Source: Chthonomonas calidirosea
Lineage (GTDB): Bacteria; Armatimonadota; Fimbriimonadia; Fimbriimonadales; Fimbriimonadaceae
Length of the DNA: 11,914 nt
Direction of reading: 5' to 3'
NCBI GenBank assembly: GCA_945859975.1
Contig: CAMAPH010000065.1
Span: 1 to 11,914, forward strand
A program made the position numbers and the translations under genes. How positions within the stretch are numbered: position 1 is the first letter of the stretch; each line of letters opens with the position of its first letter. Positions 1 to 9,493 of this stretch are shown piece after piece. The notes beneath the pieces were generated by a model that was not told the DNA's origin, did not search any database, and was given only the letters and a program-made list of their open reading frames with translations.

Positions 1-42
1 TCTTTTCGGTTAGGGAAGAGTTCTGTCCCGACAGACACCGCC

Positions 43-399
43 ATGATGACTTCGGCAAGACAGCTGAGCGTTTCTGCCTTCACGATGCTCTTCGTCGTGG
101 TTGGGCTGTCGTTCCGTCCAAGCATGAACTGGCTGGTTCTCGACCAGGAATACGCCAAAACCGATGGCATGATCGGGAAGACCAGCAACGATGTCATCGC
201 CGCGCTGGGCGACCCAACCGAGGTCTACAACAAAAAGCGATTCTGGGAGCGAGACCGGTGGGGAAATTTCCGCGGCTGGGATCCCGATCCGAGCTACCCG
301 ATCGGCGAACGAGCGTTCTGCTACGTGATCGGAACAAAACGCATCGTCTTCTACTTCGCCCGCGATGTCGTAACCGCCGTCAAAACCTCTTACTCGTAA
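43..399 (+). CDS. Hypothetical membrane-anchored/exported protein, possibly SmpA/BamE-like small domain
   Basis: 118-aa ORF with host-like codon usage. It has an N-terminal hydrophobic stretch (AFTMLFVVVGL), a 'GKTSNDVIAALGDP' motif reminiscent of SmpA/OmlA (GMT.++V...LG.P) and a C-terminal beta-strand pattern 'IVFYFARDVV'. The start could be either ATG (43 or 46). Confidence 0.65.
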   Translation: MMTSARQLSVSAFTMLFVVVGLSFRPSMNWLVLDQEYAKTDGMIGKTSNDVIAALGDPTEVYNKKRFWERDRWGNFRGWDPDPSYPIGERAFCYVIGTKRIVFYFARDVVTAVKTSYS

Positions 400-412
400 G
401 CCGGCCGAACCG

Positions 413-1081
413 TCAGAGCTCGAGCGACCAGGTTTCCTGAAGGGCGTCGTAAGAGATCGACTTCACGTGAAAGTCGCCGTAAAGCGTGTTGTACCGGAAC
501 CCTCGAATGTTGTCGAAGTAATCCCGCAAGCTGTCCGTCGGAGTGAGCGCGCGGGTCGAGCCGTGCCAATGCCCCGCACCGTCGAACATGACATTCACGT
601 CGGAAGGCAGCCGGAAATTCGTCTGGGTGAAGTACTTGAAGGCGATCTCCGTCCGGAAGAAGTAGCTCGAACCGTACACCTTCCACATGCTTGGGTCGGC
701 TCGAAATGGCGTGGGGAAGTGGTTCTCTAAAACCTGCGTCCCCGAGTCTCCCGGGCAGTGAAAAATGTCTTTGTTCTTCGCGTACGGCTGAACCACCTCG
801 TGGAGCAACGGCATCGTGTCGATCCGGTTTCGAAACTCCGGAAACTCTTCCCAAATCTCCGGCGCAAACTTATCGCTGGCATCCAGCGCATGAGGAAACT
901 GGTCCTCGTAATCCCCCATGTAAAGCGCAATCGAGGCCCCGATCTGCTTCAGATTGCTGATGCATGCCGACTTCTTAGCCTCCGCCTTCGCCCTCGCAAA
1001 AACTGGGAACAGGAACGCGGCGAGAATCGCGATGATCGCAATCACGACCAACAGTTCAATAAGCGTAAAGGCGCGCCGCAT
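413..1081 (-). CDS. Prepilin-type N-terminal cleavage/methylation domain protein (DUF1559-like, H-X9-DG-type C-terminus)
   Basis: Class III signal '[32 protein letters not shown]', then '[21 protein letters not shown]', '[14 protein letters not shown]' and C-terminal '[11 protein letters not shown]'. SD-like GAGAGG lies just upstream on the minus strand. Confidence 0.93.
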
Positions 1082-1168
1082 ACCCTCTCAGTTTACGACG
1101 ACCACCGAGATTACGTGCCGAATATTTGGGTCAATCGCCGGAACCGTTTAAAGCTCGTAGGGTCGGCG

Positions 1169-1198
1169 TAGACTTTTGCCGCCTTCATAGTCCAAAAT
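1169..1198 (+). promoter_or_regulatory. Possible sigma70-type promoter for the 605-aa gene
   Basis: TAGACT (1169-1174), an 18-nt spacer and CAAAAT (1193-1198) lie in the divergent intergenic region. SD-like GAGGA precedes the TTG at 1247. Confidence 0.25.
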
Positions 1199-1246
1199 GA
1201 GTGGTTGCGCCCCAACCTGCATCCGGGGCCAGCGTGAGGAAGCAAT

Positions 1247-3064
1247 TTGGCCAAGCAAGTCTCGTTTAAGCCCGAAGAAATTTCTGCCCGATCCTATGCG
1301 GATCGCCTGATTCTCGAGAAACTCACCGAGATGGAGGCCGCAATCAAGCTCAGCGAACTGGCCGAGAAGTTGGCGGACAGTGGCATCGGTTTGGCAACCG
1401 TTCGATCCCTCCTGGCTTCGAACCCAGATCGATTCGCCTACCATGAGCGACGCTGGATTCCGGCCGCCCGACTGATCACTCAGGGCCGACCGCTTGCCGA
1501 AATCATCGCCGTCACCCTCGATCGATTCGGCGCGCCAATGCCGTTCGACCTTCTCGTGACCGAGATCTCCCGGGTCCGAAAAGAAGAAATCGAAGTCATC
1601 GAACCCGTCGTGCTTCGACTCCTCGACCACGACTCCCGATTCGCCTTCACCCTCGAGCACGAAGTCGCCCTCACCTCGTGGAGCTTCGTCGCCATCGATG
1701 AAGAACGAGATCGCGGCCTCGCCCTCAACGGCCTCACTCCAGAAGAAGTCGAAATTATTGAAGCCCGACTTGGCAACTTCGACTGGCGCGCAGATGATGC
1801 GGTTGCCGTCGCCATCGAAAAGCTCGCCCCGGCGCGATTGAAAGCCATTGGTGCTGCCTGCTGGAAGCAACTCAACTCCGAAGATCCAAAGTCGGTTCTG
1901 CTCTTTGATTTCCGAAAGTTTGCCGCCGAAGCCTTCAGCGTTCCAGGCTTCATCTACTCGCCCGATGGCACGATCTACCCAGAAAAAGAAGCCACCAAGT
2001 GGATTTCTGGCGCGATCAAGTTGGCCGATAAGCTCGCCCCATCCGTTGAAGTCGATGACGTCGCCCCGATGGAGATCAAGCCCGAGGACATCAGCAAGAT
2101 GGTAGGCAAGATCGTTGGCGTCGACACCAGCACCACCGCCCTCAAGCTTCTCGAAGAGAACTACGAAATCACGCCAGGAACCAAGACCTTTGTCGATGAC
2201 CTTGCGAACATGATTGCCGCCCTTCAAGGTAGCCCCGATGTCGTGTGGGTCGGCGGAGACCGATTCCGAAAGCCCGGTTCCATGCCGGACTACATCGCCG
2301 AGGTTCCAGAGCCGTTCTACTTCGTATCGTCCGACATCATGGACGAAGAAGGCGAACTCATCGATGTCGAACTCACCGATGACGGCCTCAGCACTTCGCT
2401 CCGAAAGCTCCTCAGCCACCCGCTGGCCATGGACGTGCTGGACGAAGACATTTCGCCAACGCCAAAGGTCATGCCAGACAGCGTTCGCTTGGTCCTTAAG
2501 TCCATCCACCGAGAGCTCGGCACGTTCCCAATGTGCCAGTTGCCAACCGGATTCCTCGATGCCACTCCAAACGTTCAGGAGTTGGTCATGCAGGATGCCG
2601 ACGGCCGAGAACTCACGATCTGGGCCAACCACGAAGCCCGGTTGACCTACAACTGGATCGACTGGTGGTTCGAGCAGACCAACGAAAGCGGCGCCGTCTT
2701 CACCCTGACCAAGACCAACAAGCCGAACGTCTTCGACTTCGCTTGGATGGAACAGCCAGACCCCGTCGTCTACATCACCGTTCAGCGAATGGAAGAACTC
2801 CGAAACATCGGTGTCGCTTCCGAAGGCAAGAGCATGCTCGACGTTCTCGTCGAAGTCTTTGCCCACTGGCCAAAGGGCGCCGACTTCTTGACTCTCCTCG
2901 CCGAAGTCAACGTTGTCCGACGCAGCAGCCGACGCCTCATCGCATCGCTCCTCAGCAGCTACCAGTGCTTCTACCAGCGATCCGGAAGCCCGGTCTGGCA
3001 CTTCGACGCCAAGAAGATCGATCTCGGCTTCGACAAGACGAAGCGCAAGTTCGTTCGAAAGTAA
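1247..3064 (+). CDS. Conserved hypothetical protein (605 aa) with several putative winged-helix-like units
   Basis: Long ORF with strong host codon bias (C-ending codons) and a TTG start preceded by GAGGA. It is acidic with no TM segment or signal peptide. Helix-helix-helix-beta-hairpin-like segments recur, ending in 'RF....RW', 'RF....EV', 'VVWVGGDRF' and 'CF.....VW'. Confidence 0.85.
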   Translation: MAKQVSFKPEEISARSYADRLILEKLTEMEAAIKLSELAEKLADSGIGLATVRSLLASNPDRFAYHERRWIPAARLITQGRPLAEIIAVTLDRFGAPMPFDLLVTEISRVRKEEIEVIEPVVLRLLDHDSRFAFTLEHEVALTSWSFVAIDEERDRGLALNGLTPEEVEIIEARLGNFDWRADDAVAVAIEKLAPARLKAIGAACWKQLNSEDPKSVLLFDFRKFAAEAFSVPGFIYSPDGTIYPEKEATKWISGAIKLADKLAPSVEVDDVAPMEIKPEDISKMVGKIVGVDTSTTALKLLEENYEITPGTKTFVDDLANMIAALQGSPDVVWVGGDRFRKPGSMPDYIAEVPEPFYFVSSDIMDEEGELIDVELTDDGLSTSLRKLLSHPLAMDVLDEDISPTPKVMPDSVRLVLKSIHRELGTFPMCQLPTGFLDATPNVQELVMQDADGRELTIWANHEARLTYNWIDWWFEQTNESGAVFTLTKTNKPNVFDFAWMEQPDPVVYITVQRMEELRNIGVASEGKSMLDVLVEVFAHWPKGADFLTLLAEVNVVRRSSRRLIASLLSSYQCFYQRSGSPVWHFDAKKIDLGFDKTKRKFVRK

Positions 3065-3104
3065 AGAACGAATCCCATCACGGTGGAAGGTGCCACAAAT
3101 TAGG

Positions 3105-3110
3105 TACCTT
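3105..3110 (+). promoter_or_regulatory. -10 hexamer (TACCTT) of a probable leaderless transcript
   Basis: TAnnnT exactly 6 nt upstream of GTG 3117, with no SD between them. The same geometry occurs at 5490, 5880 and 8771. Confidence 0.45.
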
Positions 3111-3116
3111 CCAAGC

Positions 3117-3629
3117 GTGACGATCACCCTCTTCATCGCAACCAGCCTCGACGGATACATCGCGGGGCCGGACGACGATCTCTCGTGGTTGTTTACCGAC
3201 GCCGACTACGGGTTCTCCGAATTCTACGAAACCGTTGACGGCCTCATCATGGGCCGCGGCACCTACGACGTAGTCCGCAAAATGGGCAAGTGGCCATATC
3301 CTGGCAAGCCCACCTACGTTGTCTCCAAGAACACCGATTTCAGCGTAGATACGCCGGACACCAAAGCCGCGACTGGCGAACTCGAAGACCTTGAAGTCGA
3401 ACTCGTTGATCTCGGTCTAAAGAACGTTTGGCTCGTCGGCGGCGGAGAGCTTGTCCGCTCCTTCCTCGATCAGCAGCGCATCGACCGCATCGTGATCAGC
3501 CTGCACCCCGTGCTCCTCGGACGCGGCGTTGCCCTTTTCGCCGGCGGATTCCCCGGCATGCGACTCAAGCTCGAACACGCCGAAAGTTTCGATTCCGGTC
3601 TCGTCCAGCTCACTTATCTCACTGACTAA
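3117..3629 (+). CDS. Dihydrofolate reductase family / RibD C-terminal domain protein
   Basis: Motifs 'LFIATSLDGYIA', 'IMGRGTY', 'VWLVGGGEL', 'IDRIVISLHPVLLGRGVALF' and 'SGLVQLTY'. The start was reassigned from the ORF track's 2913 to GTG 3117 (170 aa), where family similarity begins. Confidence 0.92.
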   Translation: MTITLFIATSLDGYIAGPDDDLSWLFTDADYGFSEFYETVDGLIMGRGTYDVVRKMGKWPYPGKPTYVVSKNTDFSVDTPDTKAATGELEDLEVELVDLGLKNVWLVGGGELVRSFLDQQRIDRIVISLHPVLLGRGVALFAGGFPGMRLKLEHAESFDSGLVQLTYLTD

Positions 3630-3635
3630 CGCAGG

Positions 3636-3680
3636 TATCCTTCGAACGTTCACAACTCAATCCCGCTGTAAGGGAAGGAC
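3636..3680 (+). promoter_or_regulatory. Putative thrS -10 element (TATCCT) and Shine-Dalgarno (AAGGGAAGGA)
   Basis: TATCCT at 3636-3641 follows the upstream stop codon. A purine-rich SD ends about 7 nt before ATG 3687. Confidence 0.4.
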
Positions 3681-3686
3681 CATCCT

Positions 3687-5492
3687 ATGCGCTACGAAGA
3701 AAGCAACCTCTATCGTCTCCGGCACTCCGCCGCCCACCTTCTGGCGCAAGCCGTCACCGAACTTTATCCCGGTGCGAAGCTCGCCATCGGACCACCCGTA
3801 GAGAACGGCTTCTACTACGACATCGACTTCCCAACCCCATTGCGCGAGGAAGATCTGCCGAAGCTCGAGCAGAAGATGAAAGAGCTGGCCAAGCTTGATC
3901 AGCGCATCGAGCGCACCGAAGTCAGTCGTGATGAAGCTCGTGCCTTGATCCTCGACGCCAGCATCCCCAGCATGGGCCCCGACGTCGCCGAGTACAAGCT
4001 CCAACTCCTCGATGCCATCCCCGAAGGCGAGACGATCAGCTTCTACAACCAGCAGCGAACCGACCGCGAAGGCGTCCTCCACCGCTTCCTGGACCTCTGC
4101 CGCGGACCGCACGTAGAGACAACGAAGGAAATCAAAGCCTTCAAGCTGATGTCCATCGCGGGTGCGTACTGGCGCGGCGACGTCAAAAACAAGCAGCTGA
4201 CGCGAATCTACGGCACGGCCTTCGAGACCAAAGAGGAACTCGAGCAGCACCTCTACATGCTCGAAGAGGCGAAAAAGCGAGACCACCGAATCCTCGGCAA
4301 GGAACTCGGCCTATTCATGTTCTCCCCTCGCGTTGGCACCGGTCTCCCGCTCTGGCTGCCCAAAGGCGCGACCTTGCGCCAGGTCATGATCGACTTCCTG
4401 CAAAAGGAGCAGGTGAAGCGCGGCTACGACCCCGTTGTGACGCCGCACATTGCCAGCATCAAGCTGTACGAAAAGTCCGGGCACATCATCAACTACCGCG
4501 ACAAGATGTTCCCGTTCATGGAGGACCACACGGAGGGTAGCGAAAAGGACACCTACATCCTAAAGCCGATGAACTGTCCGTTCCACATCGAAATCTACGC
4601 CTCCCAGATGCGCAGCTATCGAGACCTCCCGGTTCGGTACGCCGAGTTCGGAACCGTCCATCGTTACGAGCAAAGTGGGGAAGTCACCGGCATCCTCCGC
4701 GCTCGTGGCTTCACCCAAGACGACGCCCACCTCTTCGTCCGCCCCGACCAGCTGCTGGAAGAGTTCATTGGCGTGGTGGACCTCATGAAGACCGTTCTGA
4801 ACAAGCTCGGCCTCACCTCCTACCGCGCGCGACTCGGAACGAAGGATCCAAACGACTCGAAGTACGTCGGCCACGACGATAACTGGAAGCTCGCCACCGC
4901 CGCCATTGAAGAAGCGTGCCAAAAGATGGGCTTGGAGTACGAAGTCTCCCCCGGAGACGCCGCGTTCTATGGTCCAAAACTCGACCTCATCATCAAGGAC
5001 GCCCTCGGCCGAGACTGGCAGATGGGCACCGTCCAGGTGGACTACAACCTGCCTGAGCGATTCGAGCTGGAGTACATCGGCGAAGACAGCAAGCCCCATC
5101 GCCCGGTCATGATCCACCGCGCCCCGTTCGGCTCGCTAGAGCGAATGATCGGGCTCATCACCGAGCAATACGCCGGCGCCTTCCCGCTCTGGCTCGCCCC
5201 GGTCCAGATCAGCGTCCTCGCGATCGCCGACCGGCACAACGATGAGACTCTCGAAGTGGCAAACGAACTCCGTGAGACCATCTTCGACACGCGAAATCTT
5301 CGGGTGTCGATCGATGACCGCCGCGAAACCCTCGGCAAAAAGATCCGCGATGCCCAACTTGCCAAAGTCCCCTACATGCTGATCATCGGCGATAAGGACC
5401 TCGAAAACGGCACCGTCGGCGTCCGCTCCCGAGAAGAAGGCGACCTCGGCCCAATGACCCTAGAAGCGTTCCTGTCGCACATCAATAAGTAG
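3687..5492 (+). CDS. thrS: Threonine--tRNA ligase (short form without N-terminal TGS domain)
   Basis: Editing-domain motifs 'RHSAAHLLAQA', 'GFYYD' and 'DLCRGPH'. Catalytic-core motifs 'AKKRDHR', 'LKPMNCPFH', 'RGFTQDDAH', 'AFYGPKLD' and 'MIHRAPFGSLER'. Anticodon-binding 'LGKKIRDAQ..KVPYMLIIG'. Confidence 0.99.
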   Translation: MRYEESNLYRLRHSAAHLLAQAVTELYPGAKLAIGPPVENGFYYDIDFPTPLREEDLPKLEQKMKELAKLDQRIERTEVSRDEARALILDASIPSMGPDVAEYKLQLLDAIPEGETISFYNQQRTDREGVLHRFLDLCRGPHVETTKEIKAFKLMSIAGAYWRGDVKNKQLTRIYGTAFETKEELEQHLYMLEEAKKRDHRILGKELGLFMFSPRVGTGLPLWLPKGATLRQVMIDFLQKEQVKRGYDPVVTPHIASIKLYEKSGHIINYRDKMFPFMEDHTEGSEKDTYILKPMNCPFHIEIYASQMRSYRDLPVRYAEFGTVHRYEQSGEVTGILRARGFTQDDAHLFVRPDQLLEEFIGVVDLMKTVLNKLGLTSYRARLGTKDPNDSKYVGHDDNWKLATAAIEEACQKMGLEYEVSPGDAAFYGPKLDLIIKDALGRDWQMGTVQVDYNLPERFELEYIGEDSKPHRPVMIHRAPFGSLERMIGLITEQYAGAFPLWLAPVQISVLAIADRHNDETLEVANELRETIFDTRNLRVSIDDRRETLGKKIRDAQLAKVPYMLIIGDKDLENGTVGVRSREEGDLGPMTLEAFLSHINK

Positions 5493-5512
5493 AATCCGCA
5501 TATGCGGCTGAA
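5486..5512 (+). repeat. Direct repeat copy 1 (promoter plus start of duplicated gene; overlaps thrS stop)
   Basis: taagtagaatccgcatatgcggctgaa matches 8767-8793 (taagtagaatccgcctatgcggttgaa) at 25/27. It contains TAGAAT-6nt-ATG. Confidence 0.9.
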
Positions 5513-5764
5513 TCAAGAAGGGAGCCTGCCAACCAGGGTCCCTTCTTTACAGGGCGAAAGAAATTCCGTCTTTGCTGCTTACCCTGTCTTCAACTATCGG
5601 CGCTGACTTTGGTAGCGGGGACGATTTTGCTGACTCGCGAATACGCTTTATTCCAACTTGACGCGGGCCCATATTTGGCTGCCATGTACTTTCTAATCGC
5701 GGTTTCCTGGCTTGTCGCAGGTATGTTGCGACTTAAGGCGAAGAAAGTCTGTCCGATCCATTGA
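5502..5764 (+). pseudogene. 5' remnant of a paralogue of the 8783-9493 gene (frameshifted, truncated)
   Basis: Starts MRLNQEGSLPT versus MRLNERGSLFT. After a frameshift near 5540, 5621-5731 reads TILLTREYALFQLDAGPYLAAMYFLIAVSWLVAGMLR, which aligns without gaps to MVVITLDLVSFRVSVEAHSGTVLFLILIPWFAAGMSR (8906-9016; 10/37 identical). It stops at TGA 5762-5764. Confidence 0.8.
5515..5548 (+). terminator. Hairpin, probable intrinsic terminator of thrS
   Basis: AAGAAGGGAGCCTG-ccaac-CAGGGTCCCTTCTT pairs at 13/14 bp, ends in TTCTTT and lies 22 nt after the thrS stop. Confidence 0.55.
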
Positions 5765-5879
5765 GCGCAGACCAAGAAGTTCGTTCCGCTTAGATTCCGG
5801 CCGCCAATCCAAACTGTGGGACAGGGAAGAAAACCTTGTCCGATGAGTACATTTGGCACGTTAGAGGCGTCTGAAGACC

Positions 5880-5885
5880 TAGAAT
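5880..5885 (+). promoter_or_regulatory. -10 hexamer (TAGAAT) of a probable leaderless transcript for the cassette
   Basis: TAGAAT-agacag-ATG(5892), with no SD in between. The hexamer and spacing are identical to 5490 and 8771. Confidence 0.5.
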
Positions 5886-5891
5886 AGACAG

Positions 5892-7796
5892 ATGATCATC
5901 CCGCCCCACGCAAGATTACAGTTTGTAACCGTTGTGCCTAGCGATACAATCACCTATCCGGTGCCAGCTCGTGCAGTCCGTGTAGAAACAGGCGGAAACC
6001 TGCGATATCGGAACTCCGCTAGTGTAGACATCACGCTAAGTTCTGTCGCACCGGGACTTCTGTTCATTGATGCCGTTCGCATCTGGGCAACCGGAACTAC
6101 CGCGACGGGAGTGACTGCGGCGTTTGCCTGGATTACCGACACTTCCAATTGGTCCGACATTAATATTCAACTTATCCCTGACTGGGGAGCCATAGGGTTC
6201 AACCCCGTCAAGGGAAACGGCAAGTTCCAGCGCTCTTTGAATCATCAGTGGCGGTATACGGGCAAGCCAGCGGATGAAATTCCGACAACCGGTTTTACGG
6301 ATCGCTACGTGGATCCAATAATAGGGGACGACGGCAACGATGGGACGTCGCCGACGCAACAGCCAAATAATGTCGGCCCATGGAAGTCGTTAGAGTTCGC
6401 CCTCAACGTACTTAACATAGCGAACCTACGTATTATCATTCCTGACAAATCTGTTTTTGACTTTCGCGCTTTGGGTGGCCGGCCTTGGAGCACTTTGGTG
6501 AGACGAGTTCCCAGACCCAGCAAAACAATTGTGATAAACGCCTCGGCTCTCGCTGGAAACTTTGATCAGGACCTGGGTTGGCGCACTTCGACCGAAATGG
6601 AACGCAAAACCGGTTGGACTCAAGTCGGGTCTACGAGCGTATACTTTTCTGAAGTTTTCTGTAACGGAGATGACAATTCAATTCCTGATTTCGATTGGAA
6701 ATCTGGGCCAAATGCCATTGGTGGCTCTTCCTTACAAACTGGCTGCATTATAGACGAAGCGCTTACGGATCAGAACGGGCCCACACGATACTTACAAGTC
6801 AACTCTTCGTCGGATGTCAGTGCTGCTCCATTCACGTATGCTTATGTGCGTGATACGGTCACAAGGCTTTGTACGGTCTACATAAATACCGGCAGCTCAG
6901 ACCCTGCATCGACCGAAGGAATTCGGGTCTTCGCTAACACTTATGGTGGTAGTTTTGATACAGCAAATTTTGCCGCAGGAAACACGAAAGAACTTTGTGT
7001 CATAAACGGCACCTTTGAAGGTGGTCACGGAACCTTCGTCGTCGCTGGTACGGATGGAAAGTCAAATGCCAACCTCATCACCTTCTGGCAATGTGTTTTT
7101 CGCTACAGTAAAGCAGGAAGAGCTGGACTCAGTGTAGATCGACCCTGCGAGGTGCGCGCATTTTACTCAACGGCCTATGCGAATGGTAATGACGGGATTA
7201 CGTACACCTCGACAATGTCACAAAATCAGCGATCCGATGACTACTTAATTCGTGTATTGGAAGTAGGCTGTCGTTCATTTTGGAACGGGTCGACTGCTGC
7301 GTCCATAACCGTTAACGGTACTCCTAATTCAAGCCTCTTAGGAAAGGTGAATGGATATACTTCGCACCAAGGGGCAAAAGTCGTGAGAGTCGGTGCGATT
7401 GCCCATTCTAACGGTGGCGCAAACTATGGTGATGCCGCATCAAGTGGATACATCCGTACACTGAATCTTGGCTGCTATAGCTGGCGCTCTCTTGGTAGTA
7501 CTACGAAGTCTGAAGGTAAAGTCCAATTTGCTGTGTACGGATACAGTGGCTCTCTACCTGAGGAGAATTCTGCCGCACAATCTGGAGCCATCGTTTGGCT
7601 ACTCGATTTCGGTTACTGGTCGGAGCTTGGCGAAATCACGCTCTCGGACAACATCTTGTTTATGACGGATGAACAAGTTGGTCAACCGGCTAGAAATGTA
7701 GGACGTATCCAATCGACCGACGATTTCCCTACGCCAAAAGTCGTTTTGGATAAGGGTGCGACTGAACTCAGCAACTTTACCAAAATTGTGTTTTAA
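5892..7796 (+). CDS. Phage/GTA head-spike-base (Rcc01079-like) domain fused to a putative right-handed beta-helix (pectin-lyase-like) region
   Basis: Residues ~11-78 'VTVVPSDT..YPVPARAVRVETGGNL....DITLSSVAPG.LFIDAVRIWATGTTATGVTA' match the remembered family pattern (TPSD...RA+YVG.GGN+...VT+..VPAG.+P+...R+.ATGTTAT.+VA). 'YVDPIIGDDGNDGTSP...PWKSLEFAL' is a typical beta-helix cap, and later G/N-rich rungs include 'AYANGNDGITY', 'SFWNG' and 'NGYTSHQGAKVVRVG'. There is no signal peptide. Confidence 0.75.
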   Translation: MIIPPHARLQFVTVVPSDTITYPVPARAVRVETGGNLRYRNSASVDITLSSVAPGLLFIDAVRIWATGTTATGVTAAFAWITDTSNWSDINIQLIPDWGAIGFNPVKGNGKFQRSLNHQWRYTGKPADEIPTTGFTDRYVDPIIGDDGNDGTSPTQQPNNVGPWKSLEFALNVLNIANLRIIIPDKSVFDFRALGGRPWSTLVRRVPRPSKTIVINASALAGNFDQDLGWRTSTEMERKTGWTQVGSTSVYFSEVFCNGDDNSIPDFDWKSGPNAIGGSSLQTGCIIDEALTDQNGPTRYLQVNSSSDVSAAPFTYAYVRDTVTRLCTVYINTGSSDPASTEGIRVFANTYGGSFDTANFAAGNTKELCVINGTFEGGHGTFVVAGTDGKSNANLITFWQCVFRYSKAGRAGLSVDRPCEVRAFYSTAYANGNDGITYTSTMSQNQRSDDYLIRVLEVGCRSFWNGSTAASITVNGTPNSSLLGKVNGYTSHQGAKVVRVGAIAHSNGGANYGDAASSGYIRTLNLGCYSWRSLGSTTKSEGKVQFAVYGYSGSLPEENSAAQSGAIVWLLDFGYWSELGEITLSDNILFMTDEQVGQPARNVGRIQSTDDFPTPKVVLDKGATELSNFTKIVF

Positions 7797-7797
7797 G

Positions 7798-8529
7798 ATG
7801 AAACTGTCTCAACTGTTAATGCTCTCGACACTGTTCGCTACAACTCTGCTCACGGGGTGTGGAGGTACGGCACAAAGTAGTAGCGCCCCAACTGGCGTTC
7901 GTTTACGCTACATGCAACTAAGCCCTTATCCTGAATTACTGCCCGCTCGGTTCACCGATGGGAATGGAACTGAAACAGTCCGAACTGCGGAACAGTGGGG
8001 ACAACTCTCAGAATGGGGGAACGAAATACCATTCGAACAATCTAACGTTCGGATTAAACTCGATGGTGAAGCGGAGTTTACGGACTTTACTCCTCTAGAG
8101 AGAACTCAGGCTCCACAGGGTTTGGTTACAATTGCGGTTGGTAGCACTGGAGTAAGGTCCCTTCGAGCGTGGTACCCACCATCGGACGGAAGCCGTTGCT
8201 CCTTACAGATGATAGGATTCCGCACTAGTTTCCCGGAAGACGGCGGAGCCTACGAAGTTTTCCTGAGAAAATCCGATCTTTCGGAAGTAAAGATTGGCGG
8301 CTTTTCCGAGGGAAGAGAACCACAGATGCCCATCGACTTTGTGCCACCAGCGGGTGAAGTCACGGTGGTTCTGAGGCTCTATTTCACGGGTGAAGTCTAC
8401 GACGTATTCGGCAGAATGACGTTTAAGCCAGGAATGACGTACATTGGGTTTACGGGAAAGCGGGCAAACGGAGATGGGACGTTCCGGAAGATCAGTCGAA
8501 TATGGGAAGATCCATTTCCTAGCCGTTAG
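7798..8529 (+). CDS. Lipoprotein, possibly DUF4397-like beta-sandwich
   Basis: ATG 7798 lies 1 nt after the upstream stop. The signal 'MKLSQLLMLSTLFATTLLTGC' has lipobox LTGC, followed by a GGTAQSSS linker. 'VRLRYMQLSPYPE' resembles the DUF4397 start (VRV+HASP). The protein is 243 aa. Confidence 0.8.
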   Translation: MKLSQLLMLSTLFATTLLTGCGGTAQSSSAPTGVRLRYMQLSPYPELLPARFTDGNGTETVRTAEQWGQLSEWGNEIPFEQSNVRIKLDGEAEFTDFTPLERTQAPQGLVTIAVGSTGVRSLRAWYPPSDGSRCSLQMIGFRTSFPEDGGAYEVFLRKSDLSEVKIGGFSEGREPQMPIDFVPPAGEVTVVLRLYFTGEVYDVFGRMTFKPGMTYIGFTGKRANGDGTFRKISRIWEDPFPSR

Positions 8530-8557
8530 CCGTGCTGATCATGACCTACCGCCAGTT

Positions 8558-8588
8558 TGAGGAACTTTTTTAGCAGCAAAGTTCCTCA
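8558..8588 (+). terminator. Hairpin downstream of the cassette operon
   Basis: TGAGGAACTTT-9nt-AAAGTTCCTCA forms a perfect 11-bp stem 28 nt after the lipoprotein stop. The U-tail is poor. Confidence 0.4.
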
Positions 8589-8600
8589 GTTCGGATTTAG

Positions 8601-8690
8601 GAAAACGGCGTTCTCATCACGATCTTGCACAAAACGGATCGAAACGCCATCGACGCACCCCACTCAACCCCCAAGACCGGCAAGGCGTAA
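8601..8690 (+). pseudogene. 3' remnant of the paralogue of the 8783-9493 gene
   Basis: 8601-8666 reads ENGVLITILHKTDRNAIDAPHS versus EDRILFFISHKADRNAKDALHS at 9350-9415 (13/22 aa, 47/66 nt identical, ungapped). It is bounded by in-frame stops. Confidence 0.85.
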
Positions 8691-8766
8691 CCATCGCCCG
8701 CTTCGTTCGACCCTTTTCCGAAGCCGCTTCGGTTCACAATCCAAGGAATGTTCCGCGTGCAAACAG

Positions 8767-8793
8767 TAAGTAGAATCCGCCTATGCGGTTGAA
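8767..8793 (+). repeat. Direct repeat copy 2 (promoter plus start of intact paralogue)
   Basis: 25/27 identical to 5486-5512. TAGAAT (8771-8776) lies 6 nt before ATG 8783. Confidence 0.9.
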
Positions 8794-9493
8794 CGAACGA
8801 GGAAGTCTGTTCACCGGGCTTCATTTTTCCAACTCTCGGCGGAAGGGTTTGCGCATTCGGAGAACCACGTTTTATCTGCTTTTCTTGCTGTCCATTTGGG
8901 CAGCCATGGTCGTGATCACCCTTGATCTCGTGTCGTTCCGTGTAAGCGTCGAGGCTCATTCCGGGACAGTCTTGTTTCTGATTTTGATCCCTTGGTTTGC
9001 GGCAGGAATGTCTCGTCGACGCAAAACGCAATACGAAGGAGCTACCCTTACGACGCTCATCGGGCTTGGTTGCCTCGTCGGTGGCCCCGTGACTGTGCAG
9101 GCAAGGGCGTCAGCAATCACGACCAGCCAGTTTGATAAGGTCCGGGCAATCTCGCGCGCCACTTTCGAGTACGCAAGCGACCACGCCGAAAACCTGCCGC
9201 CCGCGAATATCTGGATGGATTCGATCTCGAACCGCGTGTCCGAGGAAGACTTCACCCTTGGAAAAAATCTCGTCCCGCCGCAACAGGGCTACCATGTCGC
9301 GATGAACTCAGACTTCGGTAGCAAGTCAATAAGCAAAATTGACCGGCCAGAAGATCGCATCCTCTTCTTCATCTCGCACAAGGCAGATCGAAACGCCAAA
9401 GACGCCCTTCATTCACGGATCGAAAATACGGTCTGCGCAAAAGTAAGTGGCAGCGTGACAATGCTCGGCAAAATTACTTCTTCGAAACCTTAG
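8783..9493 (+). CDS. Membrane protein with about 3 TM segments and a degenerate DUF1559/pilin-like C-terminal domain
   Basis: Three hydrophobic segments are followed by 'QARASA..SQFDKVRAISRATFEYASDHAENLPPANIWMDSI', which resembles the 'C.SNLKQ+G.A..MY..DYDE.LP' block seen in 413-1081, and by 'GYHVAMNS' and 'PEDRILFF'. The start is supported by the conserved paralogous ATG. Confidence 0.75.
   Translation: MRLNERGSLFTGLHFSNSRRKGLRIRRTTFYLLFLLSIWAAMVVITLDLVSFRVSVEAHSGTVLFLILIPWFAAGMSRRRKTQYEGATLTTLIGLGCLVGGPVTVQARASAITTSQFDKVRAISRATFEYASDHAENLPPANIWMDSISNRVSEEDFTLGKNLVPPQQGYHVAMNSDFGSKSISKIDRPEDRILFFISHKADRNAKDALHSRIENTVCAKVSGSVTMLGKITSSKP

Follow-up and report, generated by a model that had tools for sequence, protein, structure and literature searches.

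The closest described relatives of the protein considered here are the head spikes of the Rhodobacter capsulatus gene transfer agent (GTA; RcGTA). Each spike has a base, GhsA or Rcc01079, which is pentameric and sits at a capsid vertex, and a fibre, GhsB or Rcc01080, with one fibre per pentamer (PDB 6TB9; PMC7296036, PMC5026251). The N terminus of Rcc01080 plugs into the base pentamer, and the N-terminal arms of Rcc01079 make the capsid contacts in RcGTA, including a Glu12-cation contact (PMC7296036). The head-spike genes, which stem from phages, lie outside the main GTA cluster and evolve fast (PMC5026251, PMC8601537, bioRxiv 10.64898/2026.07.19.739414). Their distribution is patchy (9 of 21 Rhodobacterales), and the Mu-like phage RcapMu carries a homologue of rcc01080 (PMC5026251, PMC7296036, PMC8601537, bioRxiv 10.64898/2026.07.19.739414). 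Here we describe a spike gene from a member of the Armatimonadota, which lies on an 11,914-bp stretch of DNA (hereafter the window) that is the whole of contig C65 in a genome of 3.12 Mb (G000; 101 contigs, 95.8% complete). The gene encodes a capsid-vertex protein of the head-spike type and of phage origin, with the base and a beta-helix domain joined in one polypeptide.

The spike open reading frame (ORF) occupies positions 5892-7796 on the + strand of the window and encodes 634 amino acids (aa). It is thus not the free-standing protein of about 85 aa that is typical of the base family; the base makes up its first 80 residues (5892-6131, + strand) and is a jellyroll. Residues 10-76 match the NCBIfam profile NF048002, 'spike base protein, RCAP_Rcc01079 family', with 49.7 bits (E = 3.3e-13), where the curated 'equivalog' cut-off is 28 bits. 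The match covers positions 16-83 of the 85 positions of the profile and scored 54 bits in the genome-wide search. Residues 12-77 match phrog_12296 (E = 7.2e-13), and the sequence of residues 11-74 matches that of the PDB 6tb9 chain 'Head spike base Rcc01079' (E = 1.1e-6). An AF2 model of the protein, built on an alignment of 11 spike family members (A1) that also defined the conserved columns given below, reached a predicted template-modelling (TM) score of 0.85 and a mean predicted local distance difference test (pLDDT) value of 79.5, with pLDDT of 87-94 over residues 11-80. The modelled base matched 6tb9_A1 in Foldseek with E = 3e-4, a target-normalised TM score of 0.63 and a root-mean-square deviation (rmsd) of 3.4 over 76 columns, with 37% identity. 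The N-terminus, MIIPPHARLQFVTVVPSD, was read by eye and has no hydrophobic core, so that a signal peptide was not seen.

The base is followed by a linker (aa 81-134; 6132-6293, + strand), delimited by alignment A1 and the secondary structure of the model, in which Trp98 and Arg114 are each conserved in at least 90% of the 11 family members; (I/L)-Gly plug repeats were not found in this linker in the same alignment. The rest of the protein (aa 135-634; 6294-7796 including the stop codon, + strand) is a right-handed parallel beta-helix, as judged by VIA-align, by Foldseek searches of PDB and BFVD, by alignment A1 and by a match to phrog_32409 (E = 2e-4), the sole PHROG family found there. In VIA-align, residues 135-632 align with the glycoside hydrolase BT_1002 (5mqp_A) with Z 25.5 and rmsd 3.7 over 382 residues. 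Fifty beta-helix entries, with Z from 25.5 down to 17, span aa 135-634; those with Z 20-24 include alginate and pectate lyases, alginate epimerases and many phage tailspike depolymerases. It should be noted that the sequence identity to these structural look-alikes is only 8-16%, with 260-382 residues aligned at Z 20-25.5. The best viral structural matches (BFVD, Foldseek) are beta-helix tail fibres and spikes, with E values of 1e-17 to 1e-14. A YVDPxxGxDxN cap is located at aa 139-166, and its residues Asp141, Pro142, Gly145 and Asp147 are invariant in the 11 family members. Conserved polar columns of the beta-helix in A1 are Asp185, Asp293, Asp434, Glu457, His492, Arg499, Asn507, Asn511 and Asp514.

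A reading of this stretch made from its letters alone (the sequence-only reading) had proposed an Rcc01079-type base in the first ~80 aa, a beta-helix with a YVDP..GDD.NDG..PWKS cap in the remainder, the two in a single polypeptide, and no signal peptide. The profile and fold matches of the N-terminal domain to Rcc01079, the model with its VIA-align match, the position of the cap and the N-terminus itself bear out each of these proposals. Its further claim of a non-alphaproteobacterial host agrees with the record of the organism that carries the ortholog in G038, the complete genome of the sister species, which is 'Fimbriimonadaceae bacterium'. Relatives consisting of the beta-helix only lie in tandem elsewhere in G000, at L040:2068-3615 (- strand) and in an adjoining match at G000:C10:3618-4259 (- strand). 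One of them, which matches phrog_16653 'hydrolase' (E = 4.6e-27), starts with a signal-peptide-like stretch and has a YVDPIxGSDxNSG cap. Both relatives occur in G038, in G073 (the next closest species) and in G174 too, and they may be a host-side or phage-side source of the fused domain.

The same genome also has phage head genes. The first 84 nt of the window (1-84) are identical to the last 84 nt of contig C25, and the gene order from C25 into the window is reproduced in G038; because of this identity and this shared order, we place the window directly downstream of a Mu-like head module. The module is co-directional and reads 258 aa-146 aa-major capsid protein (MCP)-128 aa-114 aa (C25:37786-40696). 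Its MCP gene is an intact Mu-like gpT major head gene of 311 aa (C25:38533-39468; PF10124, E = 3.7e-55; phrog_371, E = 6e-61), and a profile of 21 MCP orthologs matches solved 'Mu GpT domain' capsid chains with E = 2.4e-52. The distance from the head gene to window base 1 is 1.4 kb, and that to the spike gene, further downstream, is about 7 kb. A gene for the large terminase subunit (TerL; Terminase_6N, C25:11981-13291) is located about 33 kb upstream, beside a Mu-type portal gene (PF06074, E = 6.6e-61; TerL and portal span C25:10915-13291); together with four small ORFs, this locus extends over C25:8582-13291. A connector-like ORF is present among the head genes, and the 146-, 258- and 128-aa ORFs of the head module had no meaningful PDB sequence match. 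The sequence-only reading had seen no phage genes nearby. This holds inside the window, where scans with Pfam, PHROG and NCBIfam found no phage gene besides the spike gene, and fails just beyond its left edge on C25. An early picture of a genome without phage head genes, drawn when the first searches came back empty, was likewise overturned by the PF03237 (TerL) and PF10124 (MCP) matches; the TerL search in G000 was prompted by the terminase of a phage-like element in genus g2, described below. The capsid, portal and terminase genes that the sequence-only reading had thought worth looking for are therefore present, as a Mu-like MCP, a portal and a TerL.

These head genes are widespread and well kept. 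Among the 201 genomes of the order surveyed (401 for the phylum), the MCP gene occurs in 123 genomes and 48 of 66 genera, and the portal gene in 129 genomes and 52 of 66 genera (122/200 and 128/200 when the unpublished genome G037 is left aside). Each of the five families has both genes, nearly always in one copy with an intact frame, and the two proteins become less alike with taxonomic distance: identity is 99% and 97% in the closest species, 58-73% across the family, 50-64% in other families and 36-41% in the family furthest away. The head module recurs in distant genera; in G023, 258-146-MCP-128-TerL-portal lie on one strand within about 6 kb, and in complete genomes such as G035 MCP and portal can be about 1 Mb apart. 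In three species every ORF of the module is intact, and the ratio of nonsynonymous to synonymous substitution rates (dN/dS) of the five ORFs is 0.013-0.14, a sign of strong purifying selection. No match to PF05065, phrog_10, PF03864, PF11651, PF04454, PF04860 or PF03354 was obtained in G000, and PF05065, phrog_10, PF03864 and PF11651 were not found in the complete genome G038 either, so that the conserved and selected Mu-gpT-type head gene is the only capsid gene found in both. Searches of G000 for Phage_sheath_1 and Phage_Mu_F gave no match, and we recognised no tail gene there; other tail families were not searched. From its genes, the head set looks like that of a domesticated, GTA-like or novel capsid particle. 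Beside the head module lies a 236-aa ORF of low guanine-plus-cytosine (GC) fraction (0.499; C25:36996-37706, + strand) without a family match, which could be another inserted gene.

On these grounds we tentatively favour, at somewhat less than even confidence, the explanation that the protein is a fast-evolving, horizontally exchanged accessory head spike for this putative domesticated GTA-like capsid. As no signal peptide was seen, the protein would be a cytoplasmic product; its base would pentamerise and seat on the five-fold vertices of the Mu-gpT-type head, the sole capsid found in the genome, and each vertex would then present five beta-helices that bind or cleave glycans. The spike would thereby serve as an adsorption or capsule-penetrating device of the particle and, like GhsA and GhsB, would be an ectopic, patchy and rapidly exchanged accessory outside the particle core. 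The suggestion of the sequence-only reading that the protein decorates an HK97-fold, GTA-like particle encoded elsewhere gains real support from the conserved and selected Mu-gpT-type head gene.

The link between spike and capsid can be followed in other genomes. In the five spike-bearing genomes with a Mu-like MCP (G000, G038, G035, G110 and G192), a PF05065 capsid was found in none. G035 has a lone 82-aa base followed by a 264-aa fibre gene, both at host GC, and the only capsid gene detected in it is Mu-like. The 264-aa gene opens MRIGLGLEL, like the Rcc01080 plug, and at nine of the 11 stand-alone base loci with a next ORF, that ORF opens with hydrophobic-Gly repeats; the stand-alone bases of the order and phylum are 82-103 aa long. 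The bases of the window gene and of a paralog on contig C17 of G000 are 49% and 48% identical to the G035 base, versus 34-38% to the prophage-type base of genus g2. In that genus, Mu-like genes occur in 0 of 12 genomes and the spike base in 7 of 12, and the stand-alone base lies 8-10 kb from a PF05065 capsid gene. The phage-like element concerned is about 13.5 kb long (L038 and L047; G088:C1:~1985500-1999000; also in G121 and G029) and contains an Sf6-like small terminase subunit, TerL, a CHAP lysin, a PF05065 capsid, several ORFs of no assigned family, an 85-aa spike base and a GDSL/SGNH fibre. Its size is GTA-like, and it may be a prophage, a satellite or a GTA. An origin of the fused gene by joining of a g2-type base and fibre was rejected, as the g2 fibre is a GDSL/SGNH protein unrelated to the beta-helix.

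We also compared upstream regions of spike and head genes. An 18-nt element, GACCTGAT[T/C]GCC[T/G]AGGAA (GACCTGATYGCCKAGGAA), has only two sites in the genome at up to two mismatches: G000:C17:41396-41413, 79 nt before the C17 paralog, and G000:C25:13308-13325 (- strand), 34 nt before TerL. At C17 it overlaps a -35-like TTGACC, and the two sites have a 13-mer in common as well, so this is possibly a shared regulatory site. A complex prediction with two MCP and two base chains (aa 1-100) returned a score of 0.00, which gives no verdict either way.

The spike gene itself is a recent arrival at its position. In a DNA search of 46 same-genus genomes, G038 (95%) and G073 (90%) align to window positions 1-5729 and then again from 8637 on, with about 371 bp between the flanking matches in both. 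In these genomes the interval forms the central part of a complete membrane-protein gene (about 230 aa), which in the window survives as a frameshifted 5' fragment opening 'MRLNQ...' (5502-5729, + strand), where the sister homology stops, and a frameshifted 3' fragment (8637-8773, + strand), where the G073 and G038 homology resumes. Because the site is empty in the sisters and the host gene is present only as frameshifted fragments in the window, the 2907 bp between them (5730-8636, + strand) are a derived insertion, made at the cost of about 371 bp of host-gene sequence. The inserted segment, which holds the spike gene, a lipoprotein gene and a hairpin, has a GC of 0.495-0.503 against 0.567 for the genome; the spike ORF alone is at 0.495, and the flanks are at 0.58-0.59. 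Neither a mobility gene nor end repeats longer than 8 bp were found in it. Metagenome contigs from lake and other aquatic samples bridge its left junction in three independent studies and its right junction in two, those of X2 and X3 with 0 mismatches, and an empty allele, that is, a contig skipping the cassette, was not seen among the metagenome contigs.

The lipoprotein gene (7798-8529, + strand) encodes 243 aa, opens MKLSQLLMLSTLFATTLLTGC and begins with an ATG located 1 nt past the stop codon of the spike gene. Its start was read from the sequence, as was an LTGC motif that we take to be a lipobox. The spike gene and this translationally coupled gene thus form a foreign-composition cassette of 2.9 kb. 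No family was found for the lipoprotein in Pfam, PHROG, NCBIfam or PADLOC, and its look-alikes in the atlas were below threshold (feature score 0.86, structural TM 0.47); the second spike copy of G038 is followed by a gene with weak homology to it (E = 6.6e-5). Past the lipoprotein gene lies a perfect 10-bp hairpin without a T run, GAGGAACTTT / AAAGTTCCTC (8559-8587, + strand), read from the sequence. A consensus terminator scan of 5450-8800 did not call this hairpin and gave four terminators versus 3.7 +/- 1.9 in shuffles; the promoter scan of the same interval gave five versus 2.8 +/- 1.9, none of them in 5730-5891.

The coupling of the two genes, the related lipoprotein after the second G038 copy and the resemblance of the beta-helix to alginate epimerases, alginate lyases and capsule depolymerases would all fit a cell-envelope glycan enzyme that acts with its lipoprotein partner on the cell's own polysaccharide, with the base as an oligomerisation module only. 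We consider this highly doubtful. The spike protein has no signal peptide whereas the lipoprotein is exported, which puts them in different compartments; no lipoprotein gene lies downstream at four of the six intact spike loci presented below (C17, C20, the G038 ortholog and the metagenome locus L059); and the base is conserved at the family level, above the curated 'equivalog' cut-off.

An intact 236-aa paralog of the split membrane-protein gene, itself a host gene, lies outside the cassette (8783-9493, + strand). The cassette landed in a small tandem family of such membrane proteins downstream of thrS, whose members open 'MRLN(Q/E)(R/E)GS' and whose copy number is not the same in every species. 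The interval from the head module to thrS contains genes for a 222-aa prepilin-type N-terminal methylation protein (413-1081, - strand) and a 670-aa protein without a family match (1148-3160, - strand); these two ORFs are conserved, with 65-75% DNA identity across the genus.

The spike gene is not alone in its genome. G000 has four matches to the spike base, on contigs C17, C65, C20 and C66, three of them in intact frames of 618-653 aa. The C17 paralog has 618 aa and scores 70 bits for the base, the C20 paralog has about 653 aa, and the C66 copy is a decayed remnant with three stops. The intact paralogs have the whole architecture in common at a pairwise identity of only 26-33%, and all copies have a GC of about 0.50. 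With two intact paralogs, one remnant and a coupled lipoprotein gene, the description of the gene as an orphan encoded alone, given in the sequence-only reading, had to be abandoned. The C20 copy is syntenic with a copy in G038 (94% aa identity), which has a second copy 58% identical to that of C20, so that two species with about 95% DNA identity do not have the same set of copies. Six intact loci were examined, all of them lone low-GC genes among housekeeping genes and none in a prophage: C65 after thrS, C17 after pyrG, C20 and its G038 ortholog after a DUF58 gene, the second G038 copy after PPDK, and the metagenome locus L059 on a 100-kb contig between a peptidase and an amidohydrolase gene.

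Between the C20 copy and its G038 ortholog, dN/dS is 0.119 at a synonymous divergence (dS) of 0.30, close to the 0.124 of the neighbouring lpxB, so at least one member of the spike family is kept under purifying selection. A 286-aa ORF beside C20 with a dN/dS of 2.26 was taken as a mis-called frame and left out of this comparison. The C20/G038 pair is a mosaic. Over 800 bp (L006:7877-8677 versus L035), a stretch that takes in the end of the DUF58 gene, the 380 bp between the genes and the spike-base domain, nucleotide identity is 100%, although the two species otherwise differ by about 5-9% here; the tract with the greatest divergence (68-76% identity) follows directly. We take this pattern at the anchor domain as a sign of recent recombination or conversion.

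The fused form is rare: it was found in 2 of 201 genomes sampled from the order and in 2 of 401 from the phylum. An exhaustive search of 1.84 billion representatives gave 35 hits, of which about eight are long clusters (323-616 aa) and the remainder mostly free-standing bases of 74-99 aa; a scan with a sub-alignment (A2) added two metagenome loci, and pattern scans of viral contigs and genome contigs yielded no relative. Fused spikes are a small, fast-diverging family with several copies per genome.

These data also bear on the explanation that the window gene is a stranded phage gene, a fragment or moron that stayed behind after recombination with a phage: a spike with a superinfection-exclusion-type lipoprotein that has no link to the resident capsid and is either kept for some host benefit unconnected with particles or simply young. 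Its product would be a free, possibly pentameric protein that binds or cleaves glycans and is released on lysis. The foreign GC and the recent insertion speak for it, as do the decay of the C66 copy and the turnover of copies between two such close species. The stand-alone bases of g2 belong to a phage-like element with a PF05065 capsid of its own, and the beta-helix has signal-peptide-bearing relatives in the same genome (with the match to phrog_16653). A recent preprint also describes the beta-helix tailspike of RcGTA as acting as a free biofilm-degrading enzyme (bioRxiv 10.64898/2026.07.19.739414). However, no fused homologue was found in the viral collections, where BFVD matches cover one domain or the other, and none of the six intact loci lies within a prophage; the sequence-only reading would have called the gene a phage remnant if homologues were restricted to intact prophages and this copy were unexpressed. 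The dN/dS of 0.12 over a dS of 0.30 speaks for long-term selection with the base domain included, a capsid anchor is of no obvious use to a free enzyme, and there is no signal peptide for export. We judge this explanation to be somewhat unlikely.

The positions of two of the copies raise a further explanation, namely that spike fusions co-assemble on the vertices of invading HK97-fold capsids as an anti-phage poison or decoy, with the bulky beta-helices disturbing maturation or tethering progeny to the surface glycans of the producer. The C17 copy abuts a PADLOC candidate defence system, HEC-01A/B (E = 1.7e-117 and 7e-60; AAA_21 and DUF4276, L005:11079-12878, corresponding to G000:C17:44079-45878), and the C66 remnant adjoins a type II CRISPR-Cas locus with Cas9, Cas1 and Cas2 (L007:5599-10144). 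Several very divergent base domains per genome, rapid turnover and foreign composition, as in defence islands, would fit such a role too. Yet PADLOC-DB 2.0 holds no family (0) for the three spike proteins or the lipoprotein and matches only the C17 neighbours; C65 and C20 lie outside defence contexts, bar a weak AAA ATPase match 2.6 kb from C20; and an effector or sensor module is lacking. We know of no experimental precedent for a capsid decoy, and overall this idea appears quite improbable.

Several observations weigh against the accessory-spike reading that we favour. Of the 10 residues before the aligned base core, none is acidic to stand for Glu12 of Rcc01079. In the Pfam scan of the protein (E <= 0.01), no family was found, including beta-helix and pectate-lyase families, nor any catalytic-site match. 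The base of the C20 paralog scores 19.1 bits, below the NF048002 cut-off, and the base regions of the three paralogs are only 29-37% identical, with differing N-terminal arms, which makes a fit of all three to one very conserved MCP uneasy. Of the MCP-bearing genomes, 2 of 18 in the genus and 2 of 123 in the order have the fused form, and the majority lack a spike of any kind; G073, whose MCP is 97% identical, has no spike, and the particle clearly does not need one. Neither the region upstream of the C65 gene nor G073 has the 18-nt element, and in G035 and G110 no upstream element common to spike and head genes rises above shuffles (16 nt for the head upstream region of G110). The recent arrival and foreign composition of the cassette imply that the base may fit another capsid, such as the PF05065 type of g2. 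Finally, the head module is a candidate particle-maker only.

A bolder version of the accessory-spike reading can be formulated, in which Fimbriimonadaceae-type Armatimonadota have a tail-less, Mu-derived DNA-packaging capsid of their own. Its only attachment device in some lineages would be a family of horizontally swapped vertex spikes, with the pentameric anchor joined directly to a beta-helix that cleaves glycans. This would be a GTA-like particle that adsorbs head first, with exchangeable 'host-range cassettes', each a spike with its cognate lipoprotein. Such a design is not known from any GTA or phage, and we regard it as unlikely.

Head spikes are the least understood receptor-binding parts of GTAs and have so far been seen as separate base and fibre in Alphaproteobacteria. 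Here the same capsid anchor is fused to an enzyme-like beta-helix in a distant phylum, as a mobile and fast-diversifying cassette. If spike and capsid work together, the cassette would be the first candidate for an attachment device of a host-owned capsid that is undescribed and seems to have no tail, and spike-specific antibodies or tags, together with glycan targets, would give a handle on what such particles do in lake bacteria. If they do not, the family still illustrates clearly how selection can keep a structural domain of phages outside any phage. Searches of a full-text literature library gave no description of a fused spike or of a GTA in Armatimonadota. The domain families are known, but the literature searched has no account of the fusion, its behaviour as a cassette, its occurrence as a family with several copies or its association with a domesticated Mu-type head outside Alphaproteobacteria.

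Compared with the RcGTA spike, the N-terminal domain belongs to the same family by profile and fold, and the distal part again has a glycan-recognising fold. As in RcGTA, the spike gene is located apart from the head-gene cluster, shows a patchy distribution and fast evolution, derives from phages and is found in a genome with vertically inherited head genes. In contrast to RcGTA, base and distal domain are fused, which would give five distal domains per vertex instead of one fibre per pentamer; there is no separate fibre gene with an (I/L)-Gly plug, the downstream gene being that of a lipoprotein; and the 500-aa beta-helix is unrelated to Rcc01080. The resident capsid is of the Mu-gpT type (PF10124) and not PF05065, tail genes were not found, and the host is a member of the Armatimonadota with a lipoprotein-coupled gene and several divergent paralogs per genome. 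The stand-alone base and fibre pairs of G035, G192 and g2 have a base of the same family (34-49% identity), and the G035 pair is also a lone chromosomal locus. In these pairs, however, an 82-103-aa base is accompanied by a separate fibre gene, and their distal domains (GDSL/SGNH in g2) are not homologous to the spike beta-helix. With phage tailspikes, glycoside hydrolases and lyases such as BT_1002 (5MQP), CBA120 TSP2, Pel9A and the alginate epimerases and lyases, the protein has the right-handed parallel beta-helix in common. As in tailspikes, an N-terminal particle anchor precedes this beta-helix, but here the anchor is a capsid-vertex base rather than a tail or baseplate adaptor.

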